Below are positions 11,259 through 33,148 of a stretch of DNA of 64,000 bases, one piece after another. Each line of letters begins with the position of its first letter. The stretch's first letter is position 1. The stretch is from Streptosporangiaceae bacterium (GTDB lineage: Bacteria; Actinomycetota; Actinomycetes; Streptosporangiales; Streptosporangiaceae), in the NCBI GenBank assembly GCA_025964695.1, contig JAOPYK010000149.1, forward strand, positions 15,278-79,277, written 5' to 3'. Both the position numbers and the translations under genes were made by a program. The notes below the pieces were generated by a model, which was given only the letters and a program-made list of their open reading frames with translations, searched no databases and was not told where the DNA came from.

Positions 11259-11909
11259 TCAGCCGCCCGCTGAGGTGGTTCCGGTCGGCTCGCCGATGCG
11301 CGGGAAACCGCTGATGCCACGCCAGGCGAGCCTGGCGATGAGCTTCTCGGCGGTGTCCTTGGGAATGGCCCGCTGCTGGGAGAGCCAATACCGGGCGCTG
11401 ACCTCGGCCATGCCGACCAGGCCCATACCGAGCAGATGCGCCTCGTCGCTGGAGGCGTCGGTGTCCTCCTGGATGACCAGGCTGATCATCTCGGCGCACT
11501 GCTGGAGGGCGCGTTCCACCCGCGCCCGGACGGGGGCGACGTTACGCAGGTCCGATTCGAAGACCAGCCGGAACGCCTCGCCCTCACCGGAGACGAAATC
11601 GTAGAACGCCTGCATCGTGGCCGCCACCCGGGACTTGTTCTCCGGGGTGGAGGCCAGTGCGTCGCGCACCCTGGTCACCAGCGCCTCGGCGTGTTCGTCG
11701 AGCAGGGCCAGGTAGAGCTCGAGCTTGCCCGGGAAGTGCTGATACAGCACCGGCTTACTGACCCCGGCGCGTTCGGCGATCTCGTCCATCGCGGCGGCGT
11801 GATAGCCCTGGGCGACGAACACCTCCTGGGCGGCACCGAGCAGCTGTCGACGGCGCGCCATCCGTGGCAGTCGTGTACCACGAGGGCGGGCGTCCGGGAT
11901 CGCCGTCAC
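11259..11909 (-). CDS. TetR/AcrR regulator (Rv3208-like)
   Basis: GYHAAAMDEIAERAGVSKPVLYQHFPGK HTH; C-terminal LAWRGISGFP. Confidence 0.93.
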   Translation of the reverse strand: MTAIPDARPRGTRLPRMARRRQLLGAAQEVFVAQGYHAAAMDEIAERAGVSKPVLYQHFPGKLELYLALLDEHAEALVTRVRDALASTPENKSRVAATMQAFYDFVSGEGEAFRLVFESDLRNVAPVRARVERALQQCAEMISLVIQEDTDASSDEAHLLGMGLVGMAEVSARYWLSQQRAIPKDTAEKLIARLAWRGISGFPRIGEPTGTTSAGG

Positions 11910-12006
11910 CGCACTCTCCGATCACCATGTCGTGCGACGAAGGTGACGTCGCGGGAAGTTCAATTCCATCATCCTACGTGGCGGTAACCTCGTCGGTCAC
12001 TAACAA

Positions 12007-18653: not shown

Positions 18654-19835
18654 GTGTCGTTGCCACCTCTGGTCGAGCCCGCAGCGGAGCTGACCGTCGA
18701 TGAGGTACGCCGCTACTCGCGGCACCTGATCATTCCCGATGTCGGGATGGCCGGGCAGAAACGCCTCAAGAACGCCCGGGTGCTCTGCGTGGGAGCAGGC
18801 GGGCTGGGCTCGCCCGCCCTCATGTACTTGGCCGCGGCCGGCGTCGGGACCCTCGGGGTGATCGACTTCGACACCGTCGACGAGTCCAACCTGCAGCGTC
18901 AGATCATCCACGGCCAGTCCGACGTCGGCCGCTCCAAGGCCGAGTCGGCCGCCTCCACCGTGCGGGAGATCAACCCGCTGGTCAACGTGGTCGTGCACAA
19001 TGAGGCGCTGACCAACGACAACGTCATGGAGCTCTTCGCTCAGTACGACCTGATCGTCGACGGCACGGACAACTTCGCCACCCGGTACATGGTCAACGAC
19101 GCGGCGGTGCTGCTGGGCAAGCCGTACGTCTGGGGTTCGATCTACCGGTTCGATGGCCAGGCCAGCGTCTTCTGGGCCGAGCACGGACCGTGCTACCGCT
19201 GCCTCTACCCCGAGCCGCCGCCTCCTGGCATGGTGCCCTCGTGCGCCGAGGGCGGAGTGCTCGGTGTGCTGTGCGCGTCGATCGGCTCCATCCAGGTCAA
19301 CGAGGCCATCAAGCTGCTGACGGGCATCGGCGAGCCGCTGGTCGGCCGGCTGATGATCTACGACGCCCTGGAAATGACCTACCGTCAGGTCAAGGTCCGC
19401 AAGGACCCCGAATGCCCCCTCTGCGGCAAGAACCCGACGATCACAGAACTGCTCGAGGACTACGAGGCCTTCTGCGGCGCGGTCTCGGAGGAGGCCTCCG
19501 AGGCGGCCGCCGGGTCCACCATCACGGCCCGTGAGCTCAAGGACATGCAGGACCGTGGGGAGGACATCTTCCTGGTCGACGTCCGGGAGATCAACGAGTA
19601 CGAGATCGTCTCCATCCCGGGTGCGACGCTGATCCCCAAGGGCGAGTTCCTCAACGGCTCGGCACTGGAACTGCTGCCCCACGACAAAAAGATCGTTTTG
19701 CACTGCAAGTCGGGGGTGCGCAGTGCGGAGGCGCTGGCCGTGGTGAAGAACGCGGGCTTCTCCGACGCCGTGCACGTGGGCGGCGGCGTACTGGCCTGGG
19801 TCAGCCAGATCGACCCCTCGCTGCCGAGTTACTGA
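18654..19835 (+). CDS. moeZ: Adenylyltransferase/sulfurtransferase (ThiF + rhodanese)
   Basis: RYSRHLIIP, GAGGLGS, SNLQRQ, CYRC, CPLC, rhodanese HCKSGVRS; SD aggaga before GTG 18654. Confidence 0.96.
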   Translation: MSLPPLVEPAAELTVDEVRRYSRHLIIPDVGMAGQKRLKNARVLCVGAGGLGSPALMYLAAAGVGTLGVIDFDTVDESNLQRQIIHGQSDVGRSKAESAASTVREINPLVNVVVHNEALTNDNVMELFAQYDLIVDGTDNFATRYMVNDAAVLLGKPYVWGSIYRFDGQASVFWAEHGPCYRCLYPEPPPPGMVPSCAEGGVLGVLCASIGSIQVNEAIKLLTGIGEPLVGRLMIYDALEMTYRQVKVRKDPECPLCGKNPTITELLEDYEAFCGAVSEEASEAAAGSTITARELKDMQDRGEDIFLVDVREINEYEIVSIPGATLIPKGEFLNGSALELLPHDKKIVLHCKSGVRSAEALAVVKNAGFSDAVHVGGGVLAWVSQIDPSLPSY

Positions 19836-19844
19836 TCCGTACCC

Positions 19845-19884
19845 ACGACGACGCCCCGGGACCGGCGCCCCGGGGCGTCGTCGT
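19845..19884 (+). terminator. 16-bp perfect hairpin after moeZ
   Basis: acgacgacgccccggg...cccggggcgtcgtcgt. Confidence 0.75.
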
Positions 19885-19930
19885 ATGTCGTGACATGCCC
19901 GTGCCCCGTTCCCCCGTGCCTAGGCACCCG

Positions 19931-19978
19931 CATGATGTTGCGTGGTCCCCCTTCTGAGGGGGACGCCCCAACATCATG
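19931..19978. repeat. REP-like element copy 2
   Basis: catgatgttg-cgtg-gtccccc-ttctga-gggggac-gccc-caacatcatg, same 10-4-7-6-7-4-10 layout as 4308-4355. Confidence 0.8.
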
Positions 19979-19995
19979 TGCAGGCCACCCGGGGG

Positions 19996-20294
19996 GCCTC
20001 GCCACGCACTGGCAACTCGCCACACCCGGGGGCTCGCCACACCCGGGGACTCGCCGAGCCCGGGACTCGTCACGCCTGAGAACTTGCCACAGCCGGGAAC
20101 CCGCTACGCCCGGGAGCCGCCATGCCAGGGACTCGCCATGCCCGGGAGCCGCAACGCCTGGGAGCCGCAACGCCTGGGACTCGCCGTGCCGGGGAACCGT
20201 AACGCCTGAGAACCCGCCACGGTTCCGGCACGCCACGGTTCGGGCACGCCACGGTCAGGCCGGGCCACGACCACGACCACGACCACGACCACGA
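19996..20294. repeat. Composite minisatellite tract
   Basis: About 14 degenerate 16-17 bp units (gactcgccatgcccgg-like), then about 3 gccacggtt..ggcac units, then ccacga x5. Confidence 0.8.
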
Positions 20295-20314
20295 GCGTTG
20301 GCGTGGGACGGGAC

Positions 20315-21034
20315 CTATGTGAGGTCGTGGGTGAGGCCGAGGCGCTCGGCGAGATCGTGCATCATGAGGTCGAACATCGGGCCCGACTCGTCCAGGGCGA
20401 AGCTCATGTGCCCGAAGACCTCCAGCGTGACGAATCCCTGCAGCCGGATCCAGCAGCTGAGGAACACCACGATGACCCCGCTGGGCAGGTCGGGGACGCC
20501 TAGATGGCCGCGGTAGCGCTCGATCTGCGTCCGCAGTGCCGGATCGATCTCGTCGTCGGCGGGCACCGGGAACGGCTTGACACGCCACAGCTCCAGAAAG
20601 AGAGCGACGAAGGTGCGGCCGAAGCGACGCCCGCACTCGGCCGTCCAGTCCTCCTCGGCACCGGCCTCCCCGCTGGGCAGGGGCGTGCCGAAGAGCAGTG
20701 CGTACTCGCGCCGGTGGTCGAGCGCCCAGCGCCGGAACTCGACGGACGCGGCGAGGAACTTGCCCTTGAGAAAATCCTCGGGCACCCCGCGGATCGCGCC
20801 CTCGATGTCGTCGGTGAGTTCGGTGAACAGATCGCCGGCGATGTGGCGCAGCAGTTCCTGATGGCTGTCGAAGTAGCGGTAGAGAGCCGGCGCCGTCATC
20901 CCCATCTCGCGGGCGATCGCACGGAGCGTCACCGCGTCCGGGCCCTCCCGGACGAGGATGCGCCGCGCGGTCTGGGTGATCTCGCGCACGGTCGCCGCGC
21001 GCAGCCGGTCGCGTCGTGTCCCGGTTTGGTGCAT
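20315..21034 (-). CDS. TetR family regulator with WHG-type C-terminal domain
   Basis: VTLRAIAREMGMTAPALYRYF HTH; WALDHRREYALLFG; WIRLQGFVTLE. Confidence 0.9.
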   Translation of the reverse strand: MHQTGTRRDRLRAATVREITQTARRILVREGPDAVTLRAIAREMGMTAPALYRYFDSHQELLRHIAGDLFTELTDDIEGAIRGVPEDFLKGKFLAASVEFRRWALDHRREYALLFGTPLPSGEAGAEEDWTAECGRRFGRTFVALFLELWRVKPFPVPADDEIDPALRTQIERYRGHLGVPDLPSGVIVVFLSCWIRLQGFVTLEVFGHMSFALDESGPMFDLMMHDLAERLGLTHDLT

Positions 21035-21095
21035 CACGTCACCTCCTTCCCGGGATCGGCTCGGTGGTGTCACCGATGTTCCCGCATCATGCCCG

Positions 21096-21164
21096 ACGAA
21101 CACTATTGACGGAAGTGAACGCCGTATGCGAGGTTAACACTGTTCGTGAGTTAACAGTGTTCAT
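21096..21164. promoter_or_regulatory. Array of 3-4 imperfect palindromic operator-like sites between divergent TetR and MMPL
   Basis: acgaacactattgac, gtgaacgccgtatgc, gttaacactgttcgt, gttaacagtgttcat (AAC-N3-GTT core) at 17-19 bp spacing. Confidence 0.6.
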
Positions 21165-21202
21165 TTCGGTAACGGTGAGTAGCGACTTTTTGGGAGGAAG
21201 CG

Positions 21203-23380
21203 ATGTTCGAGGCATGGGGCCGGTTCGTGCACAGACGAAGGTGGCCGATCCTCGCGCTGGCGTTCGCGGCCATCGCGTTCATGGCCATCTGGGGTACGGG
21301 GGTGTTCGGCGCGCTCACCTCGACCGGCGGATTCGACGTTCCGGGCAGTGGCAGTGTCAAGGCCTCCGAGACCGCCCAGCGCCAGCTCGGGCGCTCCGAA
21401 GCCGACGTGGTGGTGCTCTACCGCGACCCGGCGGGCCGCACGATCGACGACCCCGCCTACAAGGCGGCCGTCACCGGCTCCCTCGGCGCGCTGCCGAAGG
21501 ACAAGGTGGCCGCCACGACGACGTACTGGTCGGCCGGCGCACCCGCTCTGGTGAGCAAGGACCGCAAGGCGACCTACGCGGTACTGCAGCTGACCGGCGC
21601 CGACGACAAGGCACGCCAGGACGACTACGACGCCATCAAGGACAGGCTGGGCGCGCCCGGGCTCACCACCCGGATCGGCGGGACCGTGCCGACCGCGGAA
21701 AAGATCAACACTCAGGTGAGCAGTGACATCGGCAAGGCCGACGCGATCTCGTTCCCGGTGCTTTTGATTCTGCTGGTGGTCATCCTCGGTGGCCTGGCCG
21801 CGGCGAGCCTTCCGCTGGCCATCGGCGCCACGGCGATCCTGGGTTCCTTCACTGCGCTGCGCCTGCTCACCTACGGGACCGATGTCTCGATCTTCGCCAT
21901 CAACATCACGATCTTCCTCGGGCTGGGGCTGGCCATCGACTACGGCCTGTTCATGGTGGCCAGATTCCGGGAGGAGCTGCGCCGGTCGAACGACACCGAG
22001 GAGGCACTGGCGCGCACGATGGCCACCGCCGGACGTACCGTCGCGGTCTCCGGAATCACGGTCGCGGTGTCCATGTCCGGGCTGCTGCTCTTTCCCATGC
22101 TGTTCCTGCGGTCGATGGGGTTCGGCGGGATCGCCACCGTGGCCGTGGACATGCTGGCGGCGCTCACGATCATGCCCGCCCTGCTGGCGGTGCTCGGCCC
22201 GCGGGTCGACTCGCTGCGGGTGCCCTTCCTCCGGCGCTCGGCGCCGAAGGAGCAGGGCGCGTGGTTCAGGCTCGCGCAGGGCGTCATGCGGCGCCCGATC
22301 CTGGCCATCGTGGGTACGGTCGCGCTCCTGCTCGCTCTGGGCCTGCCCTTCCTGCGCATCACCTGGGGCGGGGTGGACTCGCGGGTGCTTCCCTCCGGCG
22401 CCGAGTCGCGGGTGGTCGCCGAGGCGCTCGACCAGGACTTCACCCGCAACGCCACCAGCCCCATCCAGGTCGTGCTGACCGGACGGCCGGATCAGGCCGG
22501 GCCGTACGCCGACCGGCTCAGGAAGGTACCGGGCGTGACCGGTGCCCAGCTGACCGGTGCCCGCGGCGACACCTCGCGGATCTCCCTGTCGTACCAGGGC
22601 GAGACCCTGTCCGACCAGGCCCGCGGCATCGTGGCGAAGGTGCGGGACGTGCCGCCGCCCGCCGGTACGCAGGCGTACGTCGGCGGTCAGAGCGCGGAGA
22701 TGGCCGACCAGCTCGACAGTCTCGGTGCCAACCTGCCCTGGCTGGGTCTCGTGGTGGGAGCGGGCACGTTCCTGCTGCTCTTCCTGGCCTTCGGCTCGGT
22801 GGTGCTGCCGATCAAGGCAATGATCATGAACATGCTGTCGTTGTCGGCGATGTACGGCGTACTGGTGTGGATCTTCCAGGACGGCCACTTGTCCGGTCTG
22901 CTGGACTTCACCGCGACCGGGAGCATCGCCCCGGCCATGCCGATCGTCCTGCTGGCCCTGGTGTTCGGCCTGTCCATGGACTACGAGGTGTTCCTGCTGT
23001 CCCGGGTCCGGGAACGGTACGACGCGACCGGCGACAACACCAGAGCGGTCGCGGAGGGCCTGCAGCGGACCGGCGGGATCATCAGCAGCGCCGCGTTGCT
23101 GCTGCTCGTGGTGATCGGAGCATTCTCCGGCTCCGGCATCTCATTCATCAAGCTCACCGGCGTCGGAATGATCATCGCGCTGGTCGTCGATGTGACGATC
23201 GTCCGGGCCGTGCTGGTGCCCGCCACGATGCGCGTGCTCGGCCGTGTCAATTGGTGGGCGCCCGGCCCGCTGGGCAGGCTCTACACCCGCTATGGGATCG
23301 GAGAAGGTGCCTCAGAGGTCGTCGTCGCCGACAGGCCGAAGGGCGACACGCCGCCCAGGCTCGAGTCGGCCTCCGCCTGA
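21203..23380 (+). CDS. MMPL family transporter
   Basis: GLGLAIDYGLF, ATAGRTVAVSG, FGLSMDYEVFLLSR, TGGIISSAA; two TM repeats. Confidence 0.95.
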   Translation: MFEAWGRFVHRRRWPILALAFAAIAFMAIWGTGVFGALTSTGGFDVPGSGSVKASETAQRQLGRSEADVVVLYRDPAGRTIDDPAYKAAVTGSLGALPKDKVAATTTYWSAGAPALVSKDRKATYAVLQLTGADDKARQDDYDAIKDRLGAPGLTTRIGGTVPTAEKINTQVSSDIGKADAISFPVLLILLVVILGGLAAASLPLAIGATAILGSFTALRLLTYGTDVSIFAINITIFLGLGLAIDYGLFMVARFREELRRSNDTEEALARTMATAGRTVAVSGITVAVSMSGLLLFPMLFLRSMGFGGIATVAVDMLAALTIMPALLAVLGPRVDSLRVPFLRRSAPKEQGAWFRLAQGVMRRPILAIVGTVALLLALGLPFLRITWGGVDSRVLPSGAESRVVAEALDQDFTRNATSPIQVVLTGRPDQAGPYADRLRKVPGVTGAQLTGARGDTSRISLSYQGETLSDQARGIVAKVRDVPPPAGTQAYVGGQSAEMADQLDSLGANLPWLGLVVGAGTFLLLFLAFGSVVLPIKAMIMNMLSLSAMYGVLVWIFQDGHLSGLLDFTATGSIAPAMPIVLLALVFGLSMDYEVFLLSRVRERYDATGDNTRAVAEGLQRTGGIISSAALLLLVVIGAFSGSGISFIKLTGVGMIIALVVDVTIVRAVLVPATMRVLGRVNWWAPGPLGRLYTRYGIGEGASEVVVADRPKGDTPPRLESASA

Positions 23381-23390
23381 CCTCCCGCCC

Positions 23391-23424
23391 GCCGTGATCA
23401 TGCGTTCGATCCCGTGATCACGGC
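23391..23424. repeat. GTGATCA-armed palindrome
   Basis: gccgtgatca...tgatcacggc directly after the MMPL stop. Confidence 0.7.
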
Positions 23425-23433
23425 GGGTGGGCG

Positions 23434-24192
23434 GTGGAGCGGGAAAGCGCAGTTGGCGGCTACGCTCCAACTGTGGCGGATCGTGTTCTGGGTCTCGGGG
23501 GCAGACAGTGGCTGGTCGTCGCCGCGTGCGTCGCCGCCGGTTATCTGTTGCTGAGCACCGTCGCCCTCGCCGGTCTCTGGACGAACCTGCACCGCGCGCC
23601 CACCAACGCCGAACTCCAGCAGGCGGCGAACGTCGAGGTGGCGGGTCGCTGGGAGTCCTGGACGGCCGGCCAGATCTTCCCCGACCGGCTGCCCTACGAG
23701 GTCGTCGGGGAGGGCGAGTACGCCCGCCGGGTCGGAATGGACTCCCGCACGGACTGCACCGGCACAGTCGACCAGGCGATCGTCCCGATCCTGGCCCGGC
23801 ACGGTTGCCGGGCCGTGCTGCGCGCCACCTACCTGGACCAGCTTGAGGGCATCGTGGTCACGGTCGGTGTGGTGGCCTTCCCGGACGAGCAGTCGGCCTA
23901 TCAGGCCCGCAAGGAACTGGCCGGCGATCCGACGTCCCTGCGCGCGCTGCCGCTGCCGGGCACCGCGGCCGCCCGGTTCACCGACCCCGCGCGGCAGGAC
24001 GGGTCGGCGGAGCGGGCCGGACCGTACATCGTCCTCACCACGGCCGGTCAGACCGACGGGCGCCCGGCCACCACCGTCCGCAAGGGCCGTGAGGGGATCT
24101 TCGACGTGGCGCCGCAGCTCGCGCACGCGATCGGCGTACCGCTGGCGCAGCGAGCACTGCCGGACTGCAAGGCCAAGGAGTGGACATGCTGA
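23434..24192 (+). CDS. Membrane-anchored 4-Cys hypothetical protein (subtilase partner 1); start uncertain
   Basis: N-terminal TM; RW...AGQIFP, GCRAVLRATYLDQ, TVGVVAFPDE, DGRP, CKAKEWTC-stop; paralog of 25480 and 27594. Confidence 0.8.
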   Translation: MERESAVGGYAPTVADRVLGLGGRQWLVVAACVAAGYLLLSTVALAGLWTNLHRAPTNAELQQAANVEVAGRWESWTAGQIFPDRLPYEVVGEGEYARRVGMDSRTDCTGTVDQAIVPILARHGCRAVLRATYLDQLEGIVVTVGVVAFPDEQSAYQARKELAGDPTSLRALPLPGTAAARFTDPARQDGSAERAGPYIVLTTAGQTDGRPATTVRKGREGIFDVAPQLAHAIGVPLAQRALPDCKAKEWTC

Positions 24193-25439
24193 GACGCTCG
24201 CTGTCCGTCCTGGTCGCCGCGGTGCTCGTCGTGGCCCCTGGCCTGCCGTCCCGTCCGGCGTCCGCCGACGTCGTCCGTGACAGGCAGCAGGCGATGCTCA
24301 CGACTCTCGATCTGGCCACGGCCTGGCGGACGACGCGAGGCACCGGCGTCACGGTCGGGGTCGTGGACACCGGGGTGGACGCCGGGAATCTCGACTTCAA
24401 GGGTGCGGTGACCACGGGACCGAACTTCCTTCAGAACATCGACAGAGGCACGGCGCCCAAGCGGTTGCACGGAACGGCGATGGCCTCGCTGATCGCGGGG
24501 CGCGGGCACGGCACGGGGAACCGCGACGGAGTCGTCGGGGTCGCCCCGGAGGCCCGGGTCGTAGCCGTACGGGCCCTCGGCGAGAAGGAGGACGCCAGCT
24601 TCAAGTCCTACCAGGCCGACCTGGAGGCGGAGTCCACCGCGATCGCCGGGGGGATCAGGTATGTCGTAGACCATGGCGCCGACGTGATCAACCTGTCGCT
24701 TGGCTCGTACGGCCGGGGCACGGACATCCGCCGGGCGGTGGCCTACGCCATCGACCACAACGTGGTCGTCGTCGCGGCCGTGGGCAATGACGGCGACAGC
24801 CGCCGCAAGGTCGACGACAACGGCTTCGCGCCGTACAGCTACCCGGCGGCGTACCCGGGGGTCATCGGAGTGGCGGCCACCGACCCCAGGCATGAGCGGG
24901 CCTTCTTCTCCAACCGGAACTACTCGGCGCTGGTGGCGGCTCCGGGTGCGGAACTGCCCGCGGGCCTGCCCGGGAACGGCTACGAGCTCGTCTCAGGGAC
25001 CAGCCCGGCCACCGCACTGGTCTCCGGGACCGCGGCCCTGATCCGCGCCCGCTATCACAAGCTGGCACCGCCCCTGGTCGCCCAGGCACTGCTGACCGGC
25101 ACCACGCACCGGCCGGGAAGCGGCTACGACGCGGACGTCGGATACGGCGAAATCAATGCGGCCCGGGCACTGGAGGCGGCGGCGAAGCTCGCCGGTTACA
25201 CGGCCGCCGGCCCGACGGGCATCCCGGCCGGGAGCAGGTTCGTCGAGAAGAAACCGGGCCCGGTACACGTCATCCCGCGCCCCGCCTGGTTCACCGGCGG
25301 GGTCTTCACCGTCGGCCTGGTCAGCCTGATCGGCCTCTTCGTCGCGCTGCTGACCGGGTGGCTGCTTTTCCGCCGTATCTCCGGCGGCCCTGACGCCGGG
25401 TCGCCGCCATCGGAAGCGTCGCGCGCGGCCATTCCCTGA
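24186..25439 (+). CDS. S8 subtilase, mycosin-like, intact catalytic triad
   Basis: Signal peptide (ASA-D), VDTG, HGT, GND, GTSPA, C-terminal TM + RR. Confidence 0.92.
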   Translation: MLRRSLSVLVAAVLVVAPGLPSRPASADVVRDRQQAMLTTLDLATAWRTTRGTGVTVGVVDTGVDAGNLDFKGAVTTGPNFLQNIDRGTAPKRLHGTAMASLIAGRGHGTGNRDGVVGVAPEARVVAVRALGEKEDASFKSYQADLEAESTAIAGGIRYVVDHGADVINLSLGSYGRGTDIRRAVAYAIDHNVVVVAAVGNDGDSRRKVDDNGFAPYSYPAAYPGVIGVAATDPRHERAFFSNRNYSALVAAPGAELPAGLPGNGYELVSGTSPATALVSGTAALIRARYHKLAPPLVAQALLTGTTHRPGSGYDADVGYGEINAARALEAAAKLAGYTAAGPTGIPAGSRFVEKKPGPVHVIPRPAWFTGGVFTVGLVSLIGLFVALLTGWLLFRRISGGPDAGSPPSEASRAAIP

Positions 25440-25479
25440 TCCCGCAGGAACTGGCTTTATCCGGCGCGCTCGTGGCCTG

Positions 25480-26376
25480 GTGGCTGCTGCCCTGGCGTAT
25501 GTGCGGCCGGCGTCCACCGATGTCCATGCCGGCTGGCCGTCGGCGCGTCTCCGGTACGCCGGCCGGTCATGGGCCGGGGGCGTCTCGGTGCACGGAGGTC
25601 GGCTACCCTTCGCATTCGTGCCAGAAGTCGACATCGTGGATGAGTGGCCAGCGCCGGTTCCCGGCACTTCGAGGTGGCGGAGCCAGGTGCTGCCGGCCGG
25701 ACTGGTGGCCGCGATCTGCCTGACCGCCGTGGTGGTCGCGGGCGTTCGCATCACCGGGGAACTGACCCGTGCTCCGCACCCGGCCGAGCTTCGGCAGGCA
25801 AGCGTCCTCGAGGTCGCCCGGCGGTGGCAGACCTGGTCCGCGGGCAAGATCTTCCCGGCCACGGTCGGCTACACCCTGGAGGAGGGTGGCCCGGAGACCG
25901 CCCGGCTCGTGGGCATCGGCACCGCCGCCTCCTGCGATACCGGTCTGGATCCCGCCGCTGCCGGCGCGGTACGGCCGTACGGCTGCCGCGCGGTGCTGCG
26001 GGCCACCTACCTCGACCAGAGCCAGGGTTCGGCGATGACCGTCGGGGTGGCTGCGTTCCCCGACGAGCGATCGGCGGCGCAGGCGAAGAATGGTCTGCGG
26101 TCGGTGAAGGGCCCGGCGCGCCTCAGGGCGCTGGCGTTCCCCGACTCCGCCGTGGCCAGGTTCGCCGACTCCGCCGTACAGCGGTCGGCCGCCGCCGCGC
26201 AGAGCGGACCGTACGTCGCATTCGCGGTGATCGGCTATGCCGACGGACGGCCGCCTCCCCCGAACCGGCAGGGCGGACTGCTGCCTGATGTGGCCGATGA
26301 CCTGGCCAAGGCCGTGCTAACCCCGCTGGCCACCCCCGCCCGGGTCGACTGCGTCCAGCCGGGCTGGTCATGCTGA
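25480..26376 (+). CDS. Membrane-anchored 4-Cys hypothetical protein (subtilase partner 2); start uncertain
   Basis: TM (LVAAICLTAVVVAGV); AGKIFP, GCRAVLRATYLDQ, DGRP, CVQPGWSC-stop. Confidence 0.8.
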   Translation: MAAALAYVRPASTDVHAGWPSARLRYAGRSWAGGVSVHGGRLPFAFVPEVDIVDEWPAPVPGTSRWRSQVLPAGLVAAICLTAVVVAGVRITGELTRAPHPAELRQASVLEVARRWQTWSAGKIFPATVGYTLEEGGPETARLVGIGTAASCDTGLDPAAAGAVRPYGCRAVLRATYLDQSQGSAMTVGVAAFPDERSAAQAKNGLRSVKGPARLRALAFPDSAVARFADSAVQRSAAAAQSGPYVAFAVIGYADGRPPPPNRQGGLLPDVADDLAKAVLTPLATPARVDCVQPGWSC

Positions 26377-27551
26377 GGCGGCCGATGGCGGTCCTGGCCA
26401 CCGGTCTGCTGCTCGCTGCGAGCACCGTGGGTACGGCCCGGGCCGACCAGGTGCGCGACGACGAGGAGTCTTCTCTCAGCGCCGTAAAGGCCCGGCAGGC
26501 CTGGGACGTCAGCCGGGGCAGGGGCGTCACCGTCGCGGTGCTCGACTCCGGGGTCGACTCGGCCCAGCAGGACCTGGTGGGCTCGGTCACCACCGGCCCC
26601 GACTACACCCAGGGTGCCAACCCGCCGGGCGTGGCCCCCAAGCGTCTGCACGGCACCAACATGGCGTCGATCATCGCGGGTCACGGCCATGGACCTGGCG
26701 GCGGTGACGGGATCATCGGCGTCGCCCCCGAGGCGAGGGTCCTGTCGATCCGGGTGATCCTGGAGAACGATGAGCCGGGGTTCCAGATCTTCAACGGCAA
26801 CGAACGCTTCGACGGCTCGATCGCCAAGGGGATCCGCTACGCGGTCGACCATGGTGCGAACGTGATCAACATGTCGCTCGGCAAGGCGGACTCCACCAAG
26901 GAGGACCGGCAGGCAGTCGACTACGCGCTCTCGAAGGGCGTGGTGGTGGTCGCCGCCGCGGGCAACCAGGGCGCCACCCCGACGGCTCGCCGGGACGGTC
27001 ACGCTCCGTACTCGTATCCGGCCTCCTACCCCGGCGTCATCGCGGTGGCCGCGGTCGACGCCGCCCATCGGCACGCCGGATTCTCCAACCGCAACTCGGC
27101 CGTCGTGGTGTCCGCGCCCGGGGTCAAGGTGATCGGCGCCGGCCCGAACGACACCTACTGGGTCGGGGACGGGACCAGTCCCGCCACGGCGTTCGTCTCA
27201 GGTGTGGTGGCGCTGATCCGGTCCAGGTATCCCGGCCTCCAACCGGCGTTGGTCACCCAGGCGATCGTGGCGAGTACAGCGGCCCGGCCCTCGAGCGGTT
27301 ACGACCCCGGCGTCGGCTTCGGCGAGGTGGACGCGGTCGCAGCCCTCGCCGCCGCCCACCGGCTCACCGGTGCCAAGATGTCCGGAGTCGGACAGAGCGG
27401 CGATCGGCGTTTCGGCGGCGGTGGCGCGCTGCCGCCGATTCAGGTCATCCATCGCGACGGCGGTGCGCTGGTGACCTGGAGCGTCATCGGCACGTTCGGT
27501 CTGGTGGGGCTGATCGTGGCAGTGGGCTTCCTGGTCACCCGGCGTTCATGA
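26370..27551 (+). CDS. S8 subtilase, mycosin-like, intact catalytic triad
   Basis: Signal peptide (ARA-D), LDSG, HGT, GNQ, GTSPA, C-terminal TM + RR. Confidence 0.92.
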   Translation: MLRRPMAVLATGLLLAASTVGTARADQVRDDEESSLSAVKARQAWDVSRGRGVTVAVLDSGVDSAQQDLVGSVTTGPDYTQGANPPGVAPKRLHGTNMASIIAGHGHGPGGGDGIIGVAPEARVLSIRVILENDEPGFQIFNGNERFDGSIAKGIRYAVDHGANVINMSLGKADSTKEDRQAVDYALSKGVVVVAAAGNQGATPTARRDGHAPYSYPASYPGVIAVAAVDAAHRHAGFSNRNSAVVVSAPGVKVIGAGPNDTYWVGDGTSPATAFVSGVVALIRSRYPGLQPALVTQAIVASTAARPSSGYDPGVGFGEVDAVAALAAAHRLTGAKMSGVGQSGDRRFGGGGALPPIQVIHRDGGALVTWSVIGTFGLVGLIVAVGFLVTRRS

Positions 27552-27593
27552 GGTTGTGGATCTTCCCTCGAACGACACTTCCTGTCCGATACC

Positions 27594-28514
27594 TTGCAAT
27601 CCGTGTCAAATAGTGATGAGACGGTCGAGGGTGGACAGGAGCCCCCTCCGCCACAGGTGAACCCGGATCCTCCAGCGGTCCAGGAATCGGTCAGGGAACC
27701 CGTGACAGAGTTGCCGGTTGCAGATCAGCCGGTCACGGAGCCCGTGACCGCGGTGCCAGGGCCCCTTCCGGTAGGGATCCCCGGCCAGGGGCAGCCGCCG
27801 CGCTCGCGGCGCCGCCGGATCCGCACCACCGCGCTCATCGCACTGGGAGTCCTGGGGCTGGGCGCGCTCGGGGGTGGCGGTTTCGCCGTCGTCCGGGAGA
27901 TGACCCGGCCGCCGACCACCGCCGAGGTCGATGCGGCGGGCACCGCCGAGAGCCGGTTGAGATGGCGGCTCCGGTCGGCGGGCGAGATCTTCCCGGCCAC
28001 CGTCCCGTACATGAACGGCTGGGTCGGCGACAAGCGGCAAGCCCACCGGATCGGCGTCGCCTCGGCGGCGGGCTGCGCGCAGGCCTTGGATCGGGAGGTC
28101 GCCGAGGCGGTGGCCAAGCAGGGCTGTCTCACGGTCCTGCGGGCCACCTACGCGGACCAGTCGGGCGCCTTGCTGATGACGCTGGGCGTCGCCGTGATGC
28201 CGGATGAGGACAAGGCGGATGCGGCCGAATCCGCGCTGCAAGCGGTACGCGAGAGCCGGGGCGTTCGCCCGGCGGCCTTCCCGAACACCGTGGCCGAGCG
28301 ATTCGGCGACTCTCAGCGCCAGGTGCTGAGCATGCAGTCGAACCACACCTCCTACCTCTTCCTGTCCGCCGAGGGCTGGGCCGATGGCCGTCCGAAGGTC
28401 AAGGCGAGTGATCGGGTGGAGGACTTCAGCTTCTCCGGCGAGATCCTGACGGCCGTGATCGGCAAGTTCGCGCGCAGCGGGGCGCCCTGCGGAGCCAAGG
28501 AGGTCCAGTGCTGA
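27594..28514 (+). CDS. Membrane-anchored 4-Cys hypothetical protein (subtilase partner 3); start uncertain
   Basis: Pro-rich N-terminus, RRRR + TM; AGEIFP, GCLTVLRATYADQ, DGRP, CGAKEVQC-stop. Confidence 0.8.
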   Translation: MQSVSNSDETVEGGQEPPPPQVNPDPPAVQESVREPVTELPVADQPVTEPVTAVPGPLPVGIPGQGQPPRSRRRRIRTTALIALGVLGLGALGGGGFAVVREMTRPPTTAEVDAAGTAESRLRWRLRSAGEIFPATVPYMNGWVGDKRQAHRIGVASAAGCAQALDREVAEAVAKQGCLTVLRATYADQSGALLMTLGVAVMPDEDKADAAESALQAVRESRGVRPAAFPNTVAERFGDSQRQVLSMQSNHTSYLFLSAEGWADGRPKVKASDRVEDFSFSGEILTAVIGKFARSGAPCGAKEVQC

Positions 28515-29899
28515 AGCGCATCACCGTGGGTGCGGGGCTGCTCACGCTCCTGCTGCCGGGCACCGTCGTCGTCCCGTCCGCAGCCCAGGCCGATGATCTC
28601 GCCGTGGTCAAGCAGCTCGTCCGCGATCTGAACGCGGCCCGGCGCATCACCAAGGGCAGGGGCATCACGGTCGCGATCGTCAGCACCGGAGTGGACGGGT
28701 CGGTCGGCTCGCTGCGCGGCAAGGTCAAACCCGGCAGGGATTTCGTGAACAACGGCCATCCCAAGAAGATCACAGGCACCTTGCTGGCCTCGTTGATCGC
28801 AGGGGCCGGCCTCACCCACTATTCGCCGGTCGGCATGCGGGGTCTCGCCTCCGGTACGGACATCCTGCCGGTCCGGATCGCTCCTGATCAGGAGGAGCCG
28901 GGCAGCAAGGCGTTCTACGGACGCTCGGACTTCACGGAGATCGAGGCGAAGGGGATTCGCTACGCGGCCGACCAGGGTGCCCAGATCATCTGCATCGATT
29001 TCTACTCGTGGGGAGACGACGTGGCACCTATTCGGGCCGCTGTCTCCTATGCGCTGTCGAAGAACGCGACGGTCGTCGCCGGCGCTGCCCGTGGCAGCGA
29101 CGACGAGACCGTCCCGATCTTCCCTGCCGCTGAGCCGGGCGTCATCGGGGTGGGCGCTCTCGACACCAAAGGTCATCGGATCGCCAAGCTGTCCGCCAGG
29201 AACAGTTCGGTCATCGTCGGGGCACCGGGGTTCACGTTCCCCTCCATCGGGCCCGGCGACTCGCTCTGGACCGTCAAGGGCCCCCTCCCCGCCGTGGCCT
29301 GGGTGGCCTCGACCGCGGCACTGGTCCGGGCGGAGCATCCCAAACTGACCCAGGCTCAGGTCGCGCAGGTGATCACCTCTTCGGCCCACCATCCCACCTC
29401 GGGTTATGACACCGAGGTCGGATTCGGGGTCATCAACCCCGTGGGCGCGCTCAAAGCGGCGGAGGCACTGGAGAAGAGCCCTTCCGCCGTCGCCGGCCGG
29501 GGCGCGGTCGGGGACAAGGCGCGCTTCGGAGGGCACCCGCCCGCGAAGATCCAGGCCGTACGTCACAGCAAGGGCCTGCTGGCCGGCTTCGGCGGACTCG
29601 CCGCGGCCGGACTCCTCGCCATCGTGCTGGCGGCAATCCTGGCGATCCGAGGGCGACGCCGCTCCACCGCCCTCGCCACGACCCCGGGCATGTCTCCGGC
29701 CGCAGCGGAGGGCCCGGCCCCGGCCGCGCCGCCAGGCATGTCTCCGGGCACAACACCGGCCGTGTCGCCACTCGGATCCCCGGGGACGCCACCGGCCGGC
29801 CCACGGTCCGCCGCGACCAGTGACGAAAGCGGTCCGGACGGCGCTCTCCCCGAGAGGGATCCGACCGGCGAGCCGGGAGTGGCGGAGGAGACCGGGTGA
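28508..29899 (+). CDS. S8 subtilase homolog lacking catalytic residues (pseudoprotease)
   Basis: Collinear with the two paralogs but D->S (IVSTG), H->T (ITGT), N->R (AARG), S->L (GPLPA); signal peptide, TM and Pro/Ala tail retained. Confidence 0.8.
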   Translation: MLKRITVGAGLLTLLLPGTVVVPSAAQADDLAVVKQLVRDLNAARRITKGRGITVAIVSTGVDGSVGSLRGKVKPGRDFVNNGHPKKITGTLLASLIAGAGLTHYSPVGMRGLASGTDILPVRIAPDQEEPGSKAFYGRSDFTEIEAKGIRYAADQGAQIICIDFYSWGDDVAPIRAAVSYALSKNATVVAGAARGSDDETVPIFPAAEPGVIGVGALDTKGHRIAKLSARNSSVIVGAPGFTFPSIGPGDSLWTVKGPLPAVAWVASTAALVRAEHPKLTQAQVAQVITSSAHHPTSGYDTEVGFGVINPVGALKAAEALEKSPSAVAGRGAVGDKARFGGHPPAKIQAVRHSKGLLAGFGGLAAAGLLAIVLAAILAIRGRRRSTALATTPGMSPAAAEGPAPAAPPGMSPGTTPAVSPLGSPGTPPAGPRSAATSDESGPDGALPERDPTGEPGVAEETG

Positions 29900-29914
29900 C
29901 GCGAGAATCGGCCG

Positions 29915-30220
29915 ATGCCGGCAGATCCCGATGACTACGCCGAGTTCGTACTCGAGGTGGTCGAGCGCATCCCGCGTGGACGAGTCATGTCGTACGGAGA
30001 CGTCGCGGAGTTCCTCGGGCTCGGTGGTCCTCGCCAGGTCGGCAGGGTGATGTCGATGAGCGGTGGCGGGGTCCCGTGGTGGCGGGTGATCCGGGCCGAC
30101 GGCAGTCCTCCGCCCGGCCACGAGCAGCGGGCTCTGGATCACTATCGCGAAGAGGGCACGCCGATGCGCCCGGGCGGCATCAGGGTCGATATGCGGCGGG
30201 CCCGCTGGGACGGTACGTGA
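29915..30220 (+). CDS. Alkyltransferase-like (ATL/MGMT family) protein
   Basis: IPRGRVMSYGDVA, PRQVG, VPWWRV (Trp in place of the MGMT active Cys). Confidence 0.9.
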   Translation: MPADPDDYAEFVLEVVERIPRGRVMSYGDVAEFLGLGGPRQVGRVMSMSGGGVPWWRVIRADGSPPPGHEQRALDHYREEGTPMRPGGIRVDMRRARWDGT

Positions 30221-30221
30221 C

Positions 30222-31163
30222 GTGGCTGGACGTCCCCCCAGATGGCTCGCCGCCGCCACGCTGCTCACAGTCGGAACCCTGCTCGCCGGCTGCTCGACCC
30301 ACGATGAGTCGGCGGCGGCGACTCCCACCCGGGGCTCCCCGACCGTGACACCGTCCGGCACGCCCGGCCCCACCGCCCGCCCGGCCGTCCCGCACAAGCC
30401 CAAACGGCTGGACCGTAAGAAGCTGACCAGGGTGATCGACGGCTACCTGGCCGACCGGGCGAGCGGTGTGACGGTCGAGATGGTGGACCGTACGACGGGG
30501 GCCTCTTTCCGTTACCACCCCGGCGGCGAGTACATCACGGCCAGTGCCGTCAAGGTGGACATCCTCATGACACTCCTGCTCCAGCGACAGCGCAAGCACC
30601 GCGCGCTCACCGCCGCCGAACGCGCGGACGCCGCCCTCATGATCCGCTACAGCGACAACCACGCCGCCGACCGGCTGTATGTGAAGGTCGGCGGCGCGAG
30701 CGGCGTCGCCGCCGCCAACCGCAAATTCCACCTGACTGAGACCGACCCCGTCGACGGCAAATGCAAGGACCTGCTCTGCTGGAGTCTCACCCAGACCACG
30801 GCGAGGGACCAGCGCCGGCTGCTGGAGGCGCTGCTCAGCCCCAAGAGCGCACTGAACGCCAGGAACCGGACGTACGTCCTCGGCCTGATGAGCAAGGTCA
30901 TCAAGGCGGAGTCGTGGGGCATAAGCGCGGCAGCCCGCAAGGGTGACAAGGTCGCTCTGAAGAACGGCTGGATGACCCTGCAACGCGACGGCGAGCACTG
31001 GGTCATCGACAGCATCGGCCGGGTCCAGGGGCATGGTCATGACTTCCTCATCGCGGTCCTCACCTGGCACAACCCCACCGACGGCTATGGCGTCACGACC
31101 GTCCAGCACGTCGTGGAACTGGCGGCCAGGGAGTTCCGCAAGACCACTCCCTGGCTCGGATAA
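30222..31163 (+). CDS. Class A beta-lactamase-like serine hydrolase, lipoprotein
   Basis: Lipobox LAGC; SAVK (SxxK), SDN, KNG. Confidence 0.85.
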   Translation: MAGRPPRWLAAATLLTVGTLLAGCSTHDESAAATPTRGSPTVTPSGTPGPTARPAVPHKPKRLDRKKLTRVIDGYLADRASGVTVEMVDRTTGASFRYHPGGEYITASAVKVDILMTLLLQRQRKHRALTAAERADAALMIRYSDNHAADRLYVKVGGASGVAAANRKFHLTETDPVDGKCKDLLCWSLTQTTARDQRRLLEALLSPKSALNARNRTYVLGLMSKVIKAESWGISAAARKGDKVALKNGWMTLQRDGEHWVIDSIGRVQGHGHDFLIAVLTWHNPTDGYGVTTVQHVVELAAREFRKTTPWLG

Positions 31164-31359
31164 TTCGAGTGACCTTTCCCGGGCGACCCTTTATCGTCTT
31201 TTATGAGTCGCCCCGGCAGGCTCAGGAGCGAGCGGCCTTACGGAAGCCGTGCATTCGGAACAGTCATCCTGTGATAACTGGTTTCCCATCCGAAAGCTCG
31301 TCCTTCATATCGGGACCTGATTCGGGGCGGCTCCCCTTTGCGAAAGACGGGAGAACGTC

Positions 31360-32211
31360 ATGACCCAGACCAGCGATGTCATCATCAAGTCCACCCACCG
31401 TGGCCTCCGTTACGAGGACGGCAGGCTGACCGGCGTGCTCGAGGCCGGCCGCTACGAGCTGCCGCAGGCCCCGACCTGGCGCAAGCGCGTCCCCGTCACC
31501 GAGATCGTGCTGGTCGACATGCGTGAGCGCGAGTTGACCCTCAAGGGCCAGGAGATCCTCACCTCGGACAAGGTCGCGGTCCGGGTCAGCATCATCACGC
31601 TGTTCCGGGTCGTCGATCCGGTCGCGGCGCTGGAGAAGGTGGCCTCCTACGAGGACCGGCTTTACAGCGACGTTCAGCTTGCCGCGCGCCGGTCGCTGGC
31701 GTCCATGACGCTGGAGGCCATTCTCACCAATCGCAATCAGCTCAGCGAGGATATTCTCAGCGATGTCACGGATGCCGCCGCCGGTTATGGAGTCGCCATT
31801 CTCCGGGCCGATGTCAAGGATCTGGTGTTCCCCGGTAATCTTCAGGAGATCATGAACCGGGTGCTCACCGCCGAGCGGCTCAGCGAGGCCCACCTCGTCG
31901 AGGCGCGCACGAAGGCCGAGCGGGAGGCCATCGAGGCCAGGTCGCGGGCCGAGACCGAGCGGGTCGTGGCGCAGACGCGGCGCGAGGCGGAGCGGATGGC
32001 CGCCGAGGGCGAGGCGGAGGCCTACCGGATCCGGGCCGAGGCGGAGGCCGAGGCGCTGCGGATGCACGCCGACGCGGCGGCGGCCTACTCCGAGCACCCG
32101 GTGCTGCTGCGGGTTCGTGAGCTGGAGACCCTCTCCCGGCTGGCCACCAACGCCTCCGCCCGGATCTACGTCGGTTTCGACAAGCACGCGGACCTGGAGC
32201 CGCTCCCGTGA
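31360..32211 (+). CDS. SPFH / band 7 (slipin-like) protein
   Basis: VDMRERELT..GQEILTSDKV, GVAILRADVKDL, Ala/Glu-rich coiled coil, LRVRELETL; no TM seen. Confidence 0.85.
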   Translation: MTQTSDVIIKSTHRGLRYEDGRLTGVLEAGRYELPQAPTWRKRVPVTEIVLVDMRERELTLKGQEILTSDKVAVRVSIITLFRVVDPVAALEKVASYEDRLYSDVQLAARRSLASMTLEAILTNRNQLSEDILSDVTDAAAGYGVAILRADVKDLVFPGNLQEIMNRVLTAERLSEAHLVEARTKAEREAIEARSRAETERVVAQTRREAERMAAEGEAEAYRIRAEAEAEALRMHADAAAAYSEHPVLLRVRELETLSRLATNASARIYVGFDKHADLEPLP

Positions 32212-32281
32212 CCAGGTGATCTGGACCGGGGGCCGTGGTCCCGCGTTCCCGATCGGAAGCGCGAGATCACCTCCACTCCTT

Positions 32282-32322
32282 CGTGATCATGCAATCGATG
32301 GACGGTCGGTTGCATGATCACG
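32282..32322. repeat. GTGATCATG-armed palindrome (17-bp stem) between convergent genes
   Basis: cgtgatcatgcaatcga...tcggttgcatgatcacg; tcgtgatcatgcaatc (32281-32296) is identical to 62358-62373. Confidence 0.75.
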
Positions 32323-32374
32323 GCGGGAGCGGGTCGTCGTCCACCAGGTCAGAGTCTGGGAGACCGCGTCTCTA

Positions 32375-33148
32375 TCAGCGGCCGGAGACGCGGCCTCGCA
32401 GGCCGTCGTCCAGTCCCGGGCCGCGCAGGAGTTCGGCGAAGGCGGCGTCCTCCTGTTGCCGGGCACGCAGGATCCGGTCGCGGTGAGCGTCGCCGACCAG
32501 ACGCTTGGTGGCCAGCAGCGACGCCAGCGGCTTGGCCGCGATCTCCCGGGCCAGCTCATGCGTGGTCTCCAGCAAGGTCTCGGCCGGGCAGGTACGCAGG
32601 GCCAGACCGGATGCCACGGCCTGGTCCGCGGTGATCCACCGTGAGGCGTACAGGGCCAGGGCGGCCTGCTGGTGCCCCATCCGCAGCGGCAGGAGGTAGC
32701 TGCTGGCCGCCTCCGGGGCGACCCCCATCGAGGTGAAGGGCGCGAGCAGCCGGGCATGCTCTGCGACCAGTACCAAGTCGCAGTGTGCCAGCATCGTGAG
32801 GCCGAGACCCACCCCGGAACCGTTGACCGCGGCCAGCAGCGGTTTGGGAAATTCGATCAGCACGTCCAGCAGGGTTCCGAAACCCTTGCCCGTGTCCGCC
32901 GAGCTCTCACCGGCGGCGTGGGCTTGGGCGATGACGGCCATCTCGTTCAGGTCGGTGCCCGAGGAGAAGGACGTCCCGGCACCGGTGAGCAGCACGACCG
33001 ACACGCCATCGTCGCGGCCCGACGCGTCCAGCGCGCCGGCGAGCGCGAGATAGAGGTCCTCGTTGAAGGCGTTGGCCGCCTCCGGCCGCTGGAAGGTCAG
33101 CGTCCGGACCTTCTCCCGATCGTCGACTCCGAGAACCTCGGTCGGCAT
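32375..33148 (-). CDS. Enoyl-CoA hydratase/isomerase family
   Basis: FSSGTDL, KPLLAAVNG..VGLG, GVAPEAASS. Confidence 0.9.
   Translation of the reverse strand: MPTEVLGVDDREKVRTLTFQRPEAANAFNEDLYLALAGALDASGRDDGVSVVLLTGAGTSFSSGTDLNEMAVIAQAHAAGESSADTGKGFGTLLDVLIEFPKPLLAAVNGSGVGLGLTMLAHCDLVLVAEHARLLAPFTSMGVAPEAASSYLLPLRMGHQQAALALYASRWITADQAVASGLALRTCPAETLLETTHELAREIAAKPLASLLATKRLVGDAHRDRILRARQQEDAAFAELLRGPGLDDGLRGRVSGR

Follow-up and report, generated by a model that had tools for sequence, protein, structure and literature searches.

Why would a bacterium keep a gene for a subtilase that has lost every residue needed for catalysis, directly behind two copies that have lost none? The question is raised by a locus in a stretch of 64,000 nucleotides from a Streptosporangiaceae bacterium (assembly GCA_025964695.1, contig JAOPYK010000149.1, positions 15,278 to 79,277 of the forward strand; hereafter the window), which has a G+C content of 69-72% and Actinomadura species as its closest named relatives. 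Three modules lie here in tandem, each consisting of a gene for a single-pass membrane protein (the partners par0, par1 and par2) followed by a gene for a subtilase of peptidase family S8 (sub1, sub2 and sub3), and it is the third subtilase, sub3, that has lost its active site. To our knowledge, pseudoproteases are well known in eukaryotes while few bacterial ones have been worked out, and the examples from family S8 are essentially CspC and CspA. Here we describe Sub3 as a bacterial S8 pseudoprotease of a mycosin-like lineage, a member of a sizeable and unannotated family; this much is well supported, and its specific function we infer.

The translation of sub3 (28508-29899) runs for 463 amino acids without a stop and aligns over its full length with those of sub1 and sub2, at 35-37% identity. 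Read against the two neighbours, the catalytic Asp motif (VDTGVD or LDSGVD) has become VSTGVD in Sub3 (S59), the catalytic His motif LHGT has become ITGT (T89), the oxyanion-hole Asn motif (GNDG or GNQG) has become ARG (R195), and the catalytic Ser motif GTSPA has become GPLPA (L260). A preliminary description of the locus had listed these four replacements, and the alignment with Sub1 and Sub2 bears them out; the Ser of the substrate-binding 'SLG' strand is replaced as well, by Asp (D164). By homology Sub3 belongs to family S8, and it is devoid of what marks an active peptidase of that family, the Asp, His and Ser triad together with the oxyanion Asn. Since it nevertheless belongs to a large and old family of such dead proteases that is still under selection, and whose members are each produced with a small membrane partner bearing four cysteines, it very probably binds rather than cuts.

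Around the former active site the protein is intact. The reading frame, a signal-peptide-like N-terminus with the same layout as those of Sub1 and Sub2, the S8 core, the motifs FPAAEPGVIGVGA and GYDTEVGFGVINP, and a C-terminal transmembrane (TM) helix are all retained, as had been claimed. The Pfam profile PF00082 (Peptidase_S8) matches the full length of its 288 positions (1-288) with 59.4 bits against a cut-off of 21.8. In an AlphaFold2 (AF2) model the S8 core has a predicted local distance difference test score (pLDDT) above 90, and each replaced catalytic residue sits where its subtilisin counterpart does, at the end of the corresponding strand or helix. The best folds found by Foldseek in the Protein Data Bank (PDB) are those of MycP1 (4m1z, 4kb5 and 4hvl), MycP5 in the ESX-5 complex (7np7), thermitase and subtilisin BPN', with E about 1e-20 for subtilisin BPN', thermitase and MycP1 and TMt up to 0.86. 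Behind the TM core comes the extra Pro/Ala-rich tail noted in the preliminary description, 83 residues with 37% Pro+Ala compared with 23 and 3 residues in the neighbours, and only 46% identical to the tail of the A. scrupuli ortholog. The coding signature of sub3 (G+C content of 0.84 at third codon positions versus 0.57 at second positions) and the strong Shine-Dalgarno sequence in front of its start, together with the overlap with par2, may be taken as indirect signs of translation.

The loss is shared far beyond this genome. The best named homologue, an 'S8 family peptidase' of A. scrupuli, is 70% identical to Sub3 and identical to the copy in G001, a genome of the same genus; down to about 40% identity the homologue search turned up no protein with a complete triad, and the replacements vary by lineage. 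In a maximum-likelihood tree Sub3 falls into a clade of 30 rows with 100% SH-aLRT support, 29 of which have no complete triad (P0017 is the exception); Sub1, Sub2, the true mycosins and the remaining active second-module proteins all fall outside this dead clade. A clade profile added nine genomic members from other genera, all of them dead. In a search of a 50%-identity clustering with 1.84 billion representatives, the profile gave 40 top matches that are all triad-less; the best 150 matches include 136 complete rows, of which 70 have no triad and 54 lack all three of Asp, His and Ser, while the active rows of this search are uniformly D-H-S-N-S. Databases name the dead-clade proteins 'S8 family serine peptidase' or 'hypothetical'. 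A count of dead copies by bit score in 151 genomes of the family found only about 10 genomes clear of the plateau, and bit score was discarded as a counter because divergent dead copies (about 300 bits) overlap with active first-module proteins. Two second-module subtilases, at L036 8647-10383 and L040 5850-7277, were inactivated independently within an otherwise active clade, with substitutions of D to G, H to T or A, N to D and S to G.

Sub3 had been called an intact pseudoprotease, and a comparison of nonsynonymous and synonymous substitution rates (dN/dS, omega) among orthologs had been proposed as a check. We carried this out by the Nei-Gojobori method (NG86) with 2000 bootstrap replicates. 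Between the window and G001, omega is 0.45 (0.33-0.58) for the full sub3 gene and 0.38 (0.25-0.55) for its S8 domain; the six pairs among four sub3 orthologs give 0.30-0.39 for the S8 domain with intervals far below 1, and in none of the 2000 bootstraps did omega for sub3 reach 1. The orthologs are themselves dead, the clade is triad-less, and selection is purifying (omega about 0.3-0.45), so the term is apt: absence of the catalytic residues in orthologs too, with omega significantly below 1, is what the operational definition of a conserved pseudoenzyme asks for besides expression of the gene. The pattern named beforehand as a refutation, active orthologs combined with relaxed selection on this copy, is thus not the one observed, although sub3 is less constrained than its active paralogs.

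A comparison of alignment columns between 29 active relatives and 29 dead ones locates this selection. Columns that are invariant in the active set and free in the dead set are those of the catalytic His, G-T-S, G-N, the SLG Ser and a few neighbouring ones, whereas 53 columns are conserved in both sets and about 10 in the dead clade only. The stalk, the TM helix and the RGRRR motif behind it are conserved more strongly in the dead clade than in active relatives. Since the columns that line the cleft (SLG strand, G-N and G-T-S) vary freely, a substrate trap or inhibitor decoy that works through the canonical cleft is argued against, and since other surfaces, stalk and TM helix remain constrained, a role as scaffold or subunit is favoured. 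Of the 'receptor, decoy or scaffold' suggested previously, it is thus the scaffold that gains and the canonical-cleft decoy that loses.

As a subunit, Sub3 would be associated with the product of the gene in front of it. Each partner gene ends within the start of its subtilase gene, and this overlap, RTGYTGA, is kept in 49 of 50 junctions (three in the window and 47 in loci L031-L057) from more than 25 genomes, whether the module is dead or active, and no dead module among them lacks it. Both the terminal Cys of the partner and Leu2 of the subtilase are invariant across the overlap junctions. The partner tree mirrors the subtilase tree, in that a single change suffices to group the partners of the dead clade, a value as low as which was reached in 0 of 500 label shuffles. 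Par2 and Sub3 are also jointly fast, with 66% and 70% identity to their counterparts in G001, as against 85-88% for modules 1 and 2.

The pair is also found by itself in G162, which carries two stand-alone dead modules (L050 7156-8978 and L051 2618-4575) apart from its active module. Because dead modules stand alone in this genome, the par2-sub3 pair appears to be a self-contained unit. The active module of G162 (L057) sits beside an MMPL transporter gene, and the neighbours of its stand-alone dead modules are mutually unrelated; a neighbour shared by the stand-alone dead modules at L050, L051, L053 and L054 was sought and none was found, their neighbourhoods being heterogeneous. In G108 (L056, contig C29, 5393-9762) a single par2-like partner precedes three triad-less subtilases in tandem, with an active partner-subtilase module on either side of the group, so that here the dead copy itself has been amplified.

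Taking these results together, we regard it as reasonably probable that Sub3 is an evolutionarily maintained pseudoprotease that forms a surface complex with Par2, in which it is the non-catalytic subunit. Sub3 would be exported by the Sec pathway and anchored in the membrane by its C-terminus as a subtilisin-fold protein unable to hydrolyse peptide bonds, and would be translated from the same mRNA as Par2 through the fixed 7-nt stop/start overlap. The two proteins would then form a complex at the outer face of the membrane, a topology that is itself predicted, with contacts made through conserved core surfaces, the juxtamembrane stalk and the TM helix and not through the former active-site cleft. 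There Sub3 may hold, stabilise or gate Par2 rather than cleave it. We infer such a non-proteolytic subunit because the ectodomain is dead and yet anchored, because its production is coupled to that of Par2, and because selection acts on core, stalk and TM helix, not on the cleft.

A precedent for this kind of role may lie in the mycosins. MycP1 and MycP5 are required for ESX function and for the stability of the complex, and their protease activity is not required (PMC5082899); the role proposed for Sub3 would parallel this catalysis-independent stabilisation, a structural task that a dead relative could be expected to keep. Sub3 belongs to the same S8 branch as mycosins MycP1-MycP5, as its best fold matches illustrate, and shares their predicted layout of a signal peptide, a subtilisin domain without a classical cleaved propeptide domain, a stalk and a C-terminal TM anchor. 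It differs from them in scoring below the family cut-off, in having no adjoining ecc gene, in being paired with an operon-specific single-pass protein with four cysteines, and in lacking the catalytic residues that all described mycosins keep. The NCBIfam mycosin model TIGR03921 is the best model for all three subtilases of the window, which score 235.8 (Sub1), 257.7 (Sub2) and 199.2 bits (Sub3) against a cut-off of 278.75, compared with 282.4 bits for a true mycosin of the same genome. The three were accordingly rejected as mycosins of a type VII secretion system (T7SS), being below the cut-off and having no ESX locus around them. A real T7SS is found elsewhere in the genome, on contig C259 (57430-74898), where an EccC (TIGR03924, 893.7 bits) has two flanking mycosins; a search for EccC on the window's own contig (C138) gave no match. 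Contig C110 (8002-9027) holds a further mycosin above the TIGR03921 cut-off, and no gene of the partner family lies near the mycosins of either C259 or C110.

A different reading, to which we would assign only a small chance, makes Sub3 a receptor: the dead domain would bind an extracellular ligand or peptide and relay the event through its disordered tail, perhaps together with a Pro-rich N-terminus of Par2. Tails behind the TM helix are indeed longer in the dead clade (median 52 versus 23 residues; Mann-Whitney p=4e-4, not corrected for phylogeny), Pro-rich N-termini occur on many partners (P0127, P0132 and P0148), and CspC and CspA, the pseudo-subtilases of Clostridioides difficile, are signal-transducing receptors (PMC12880746). 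Yet the dead-clade tails range from 7 to 131 residues, are of low complexity, cannot be aligned between orthologs and hold no recognisable domain or conserved motif; no cleft column is newly conserved in the way expected of a ligand site; and neither a kinase nor a sigma factor nor any other transducer is a conserved neighbour of the modules examined. The partner's N-terminus, for its part, depends on an uncertain start codon. From TTG 27594, par2 encodes 306 amino acids with a Pro-rich N-terminus of about 78 residues, and the extra cytoplasmic segment once ascribed to it is there; from GTG 27702, 36 codons later and the start in the public gene call (P0125), it encodes 270 and the segment is not, and the A. 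scrupuli ortholog as called has only about 10 residues before RRRR and the TM helix. The earlier idea that the two cytoplasmic tails hint at signalling is consequently not supported in that form, with tails that are unalignable and low in complexity and a partner start that is uncertain. In G002, a congener, the initial 19 codons read from TTG are conserved, and the stretch between sub2 and par2 (about 27552-27702) is lower in G+C.

The comparison with the Csp proteins deserves some care. CspC and CspA have the subtilisin fold without the triad and have been retained for binding and signalling (PMC7200643, PMC6636752, PMC12880746), and like Sub3 they are encoded beside an active paralog, CspB in their case, at the cspBA-cspC locus. 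They are soluble spore proteins of another S8 branch, however, with the prodomain kept and without a membrane anchor or co-translated partner, and the analogy is functional only. The corresponding models NF040808 (CspC) and NF040809 (CspBA) give no match to Sub3, and short sub-threshold matches only to Sub1 and Sub2. Our literature searches returned no paper with the terms 'mycosin-like', 'MycP-like' or 'orphan mycosin'; those on inactive subtilases returned mainly the Csp work and a few eukaryotic papers, none of them on dead mycosin-like proteins.

A wider form of the receptor reading, which we hold to be improbable, would see the modules as an undescribed actinobacterial cell-surface device whose dead form acts as a dedicated, non-proteolytic receptor or adaptor, the domain binding its PknH-like partner or a ligand and the long disordered cytoplasmic tail relaying this state inward. 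A resemblance to iRhoms comes to mind, which are reportedly dead membrane protease homologues with added cytoplasmic extensions that act as partner-binding regulators; the parallel is purely conceptual, the iRhom fold (an intramembrane rhomboid) and lineage being unrelated to those of Sub3. Were this reading true, the device would be a bacterial membrane counterpart of iRhom or CspC/CspA, with more than 60 divergent relatives.

Sub3 may, with similarly low probability, regulate its active paralogs, pairing with Sub1 or Sub2 and tuning or localising their proteolysis, for example by presenting Par2 for cleavage in trans. CspC and CspA control CspB in this sense (PMC12880746). The arrangement of sub3 in tandem with two active copies in one operon would suit such a role, as would the fact that a dead module follows an active one in most genomes, and Par2 has retained the juxtamembrane motif of the partners, LTRxPTxAE, even though Sub3 cannot cut. 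What speaks against it is that the stand-alone dead modules of G162 lie far from active ones, and that G002 has modules 1 and 2 without module 3.

This last genome also bears on how firmly Sub3 is maintained at all. In G002 (L033, contig C127), comparison with 27475-27692 and 29852-30267 of the window reveals at 11300-12000 a clean deletion of about 2.16 kb, with a short scar in place of module 3. The match to the window continues up to 27692 (about 19-33 codons into the TTG frame of par2) and resumes at 29852, in the last codons of sub3, and the MMPL gene, modules 1 and 2, the ATL gene, the beta-lactamase-like gene and the SPFH gene are all retained. Because G002 carries this scar, module 3 was present in the ancestor of the genus and can be lost.

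The dispensability of module 3 in at least this one lineage is among the points that weigh against Sub3 as a maintained pseudoprotease. Another is a relaxation of selection on sub3, about two-fold when set against the active paralogs, whose S8 domains have omega values of 0.16 (sub1) and 0.18 (sub2) for the same genome pair; the bootstrap probability that omega of sub3 does not exceed that of sub2 is 0.006, and NG86 is a crude estimator for genes of 70% G+C. The phylogeny adds a third, for the subclade of P0012, P0015 and P0017 keeps His, P0012 and P0017 keep Asp as well, and P0017 also keeps Ser, and it is on that account not certain that the clade has been dead since its origin. Judged from the sequences, late independent losses or gene conversion from an adjacent active paralog could explain this subclade. 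All three are metagenome proteins, and P0015 is encoded at L047 9001-10335.

Pushed to the limit, these points would make sub3 a non-functional relic that has not yet acquired a stop codon. Its faster divergence (70% identity versus 87-88% for the neighbours, and the doubled omega) and its deletion in G002 are what one would expect of decay. Such a reading is very unlikely and close to refuted, with omega well below 1 in all six pairs, frames that have stayed intact in dozens of lineages whose mutual identity is under 50%, columns conserved specifically in the dead clade, and a conserved overlap and Shine-Dalgarno sequence; nor is the lineage of the window accelerated, since dN to P0009 is 0.125 compared with 0.168 for G001. 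That Sub3 is still an enzyme, with another nucleophile or chemistry in the old cleft, is hardly credible, as the weak preferences for Ser at the Asp position (42 of 70 dead-family rows) and for Asp at the SLG-Ser position (30 of 70) are set against His, Asn and Ser positions that are essentially random across the dead family, and an alternative triad sought in the dead-clade columns proved to be conserved nowhere.

The family is also of wider interest. Dead, membrane-anchored subtilases of the mycosin-like kind form a large family in nature, for which the annotation 'S8 family serine peptidase' needs correcting, and it amounts to a natural experiment on the puzzle that mycosins are needed for something besides proteolysis. 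In G002 module 3 is naturally knocked out, with modules 1 and 2 left intact. A non-catalytic function and the role of the four-cysteine partner are directly testable, because matched active and dead modules lie in one operon and a congener carries a natural deletion.

The three partners of the window are single-pass proteins that share 29-34% identity and four invariant cysteines, with the fourth cysteine as the final residue of the chain; the partner family has only these three copies in the genome, all in the three-module operon. Searches of Pfam, NCBIfam and PADLOC for a name for the partners gave nothing significant, and a PDB sequence profile search gave noise only (E above 0.3). The AF2 model of Par2 has a pLDDT of 80.6; its best fold match is the extracellular domain of PknH (4esq), a weak one with E=0.045 and prob 0.69, followed by TiME (7cu8 and 7cu9), with TM-scores of 0.26-0.38 overall and all of them below significance. 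Pfam PknH_C matches the relative P0141 (E=0.006, 16.8 bits) and DUF7373 matches Par0 (21.5 bits), each below a gathering score of 27. Par2 resembles PknH and TiME in being an actinobacterial membrane protein with an extracytoplasmic alpha/beta domain of about 200 residues and two Cys pairs; it is without the kinase domain of PknH, and with every match below significance the relationship is not established. A part in anti-phage defence was considered and rejected, as PADLOC had no match for Sub3 or the partners and generic subtilase matches only for Sub1 and Sub2.

In most genera of the family two modules lie between moeZ and adnAB, a chromosomal position that is conserved. The first of them is active; the second is a member of the dead clade in some cases and of a further clade, most of it active, in others. 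The genus of the window carries one extra active module. Here the modules, each with the partner first, are part of a row of co-directional genes on the + strand, in the order MMPL, par0, sub1, par1, sub2, par2, sub3, ATL-like, beta-lactamase-like and SPFH, whose positions are given with the other features in the table below.

Table. Features of the three-module locus, in positions of the window
Feature	Position	Strand	Basis or remark
MMPL transporter gene	21203..23380	+	Pfam PF03176, 257.8 bits; directly upstream of the modules
Modules 1 and 2 together	23434..27551	+	
par0	23434-24192	+	partner, module 1
sub1	24186-25439	+	subtilase, module 1; D/H/N/S intact
par1	25480-26376	+	partner, module 2
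sub2	26370-27551	+	subtilase, module 2; D/H/N/S intact
Overlaps of modules 1 and 2 equivalent to that of par2 and sub3	24186-24192; 26370-26376	+	
par2, single-pass four-Cys partner of Sub3	27594 or 27702 to 28514	+	ectodomain about residues 102-306
Shine-Dalgarno sequence AAGGAGG of sub3, inside the end of par2	28497-28503	+	4 nt before GTG
7-nt overlap GTGCTGA	28508-28514	+	par2 ...Cys-stop; sub3 Met(GTG)-Leu
sub3, triad-less mycosin-like S8 subtilase, 463 aa	28508..29899	+	open reading frame, Pfam, TIGR03921, AF2 fold
Signal-peptide-like N-terminus, residues 1-28 (KR, hydrophobic run, AQA/DD)	28508..28591	+	read from the sequence
S59, at the catalytic Asp position	28682..28684	+	alignments; end of model strand 54-59
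T89, at the catalytic His position	28772..28774	+	alignments; start of model helix 88-98
R195, at the oxyanion-hole Asn position	29090..29092	+	alignments
L260, at the catalytic Ser position	29285..29287	+	alignments; start of model helix 259-276
C-terminal TM helix, about residues 357-380, then RGRRR	29576..29647	+	hydropathy scan; model helix 355-385
Predicted cytoplasmic low-complexity Pro/Ala/Gly-rich tail, 83 aa	29648..29896	+	pLDDT below 50
ATL-like gene, PF01035 (DNA_binding_1), 101 aa	29915-30220	+	Pfam
Beta-lactamase-like gene	30222-31163	+	conserved neighbour
SPFH gene	31360-32211	+	downstream of the beta-lactamase-like gene

A promoter and terminator scan of 19800-32600 gave matches no more numerous than in shuffles and does not inform the limits of the operon. 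MMPL synteny upstream of the modules is found in G001, G002 and G003 and is missing from most other genera; its link to the modules is limited to a few genera. The ATL-like and beta-lactamase-like genes are conserved neighbours for which a functional link to the modules is not established. The start of sub1 is more likely the ATG at 24186, which forms an ATGCTGA overlap like those of the other modules, than the GTG at 24180 listed by the open reading frame finder. The ATL-like gene begins 15 nt after sub3 and ends 1 nt before the beta-lactamase-like gene, and the order of a subtilase gene followed by an ATL gene recurs in the metagenome loci L045 and L047.

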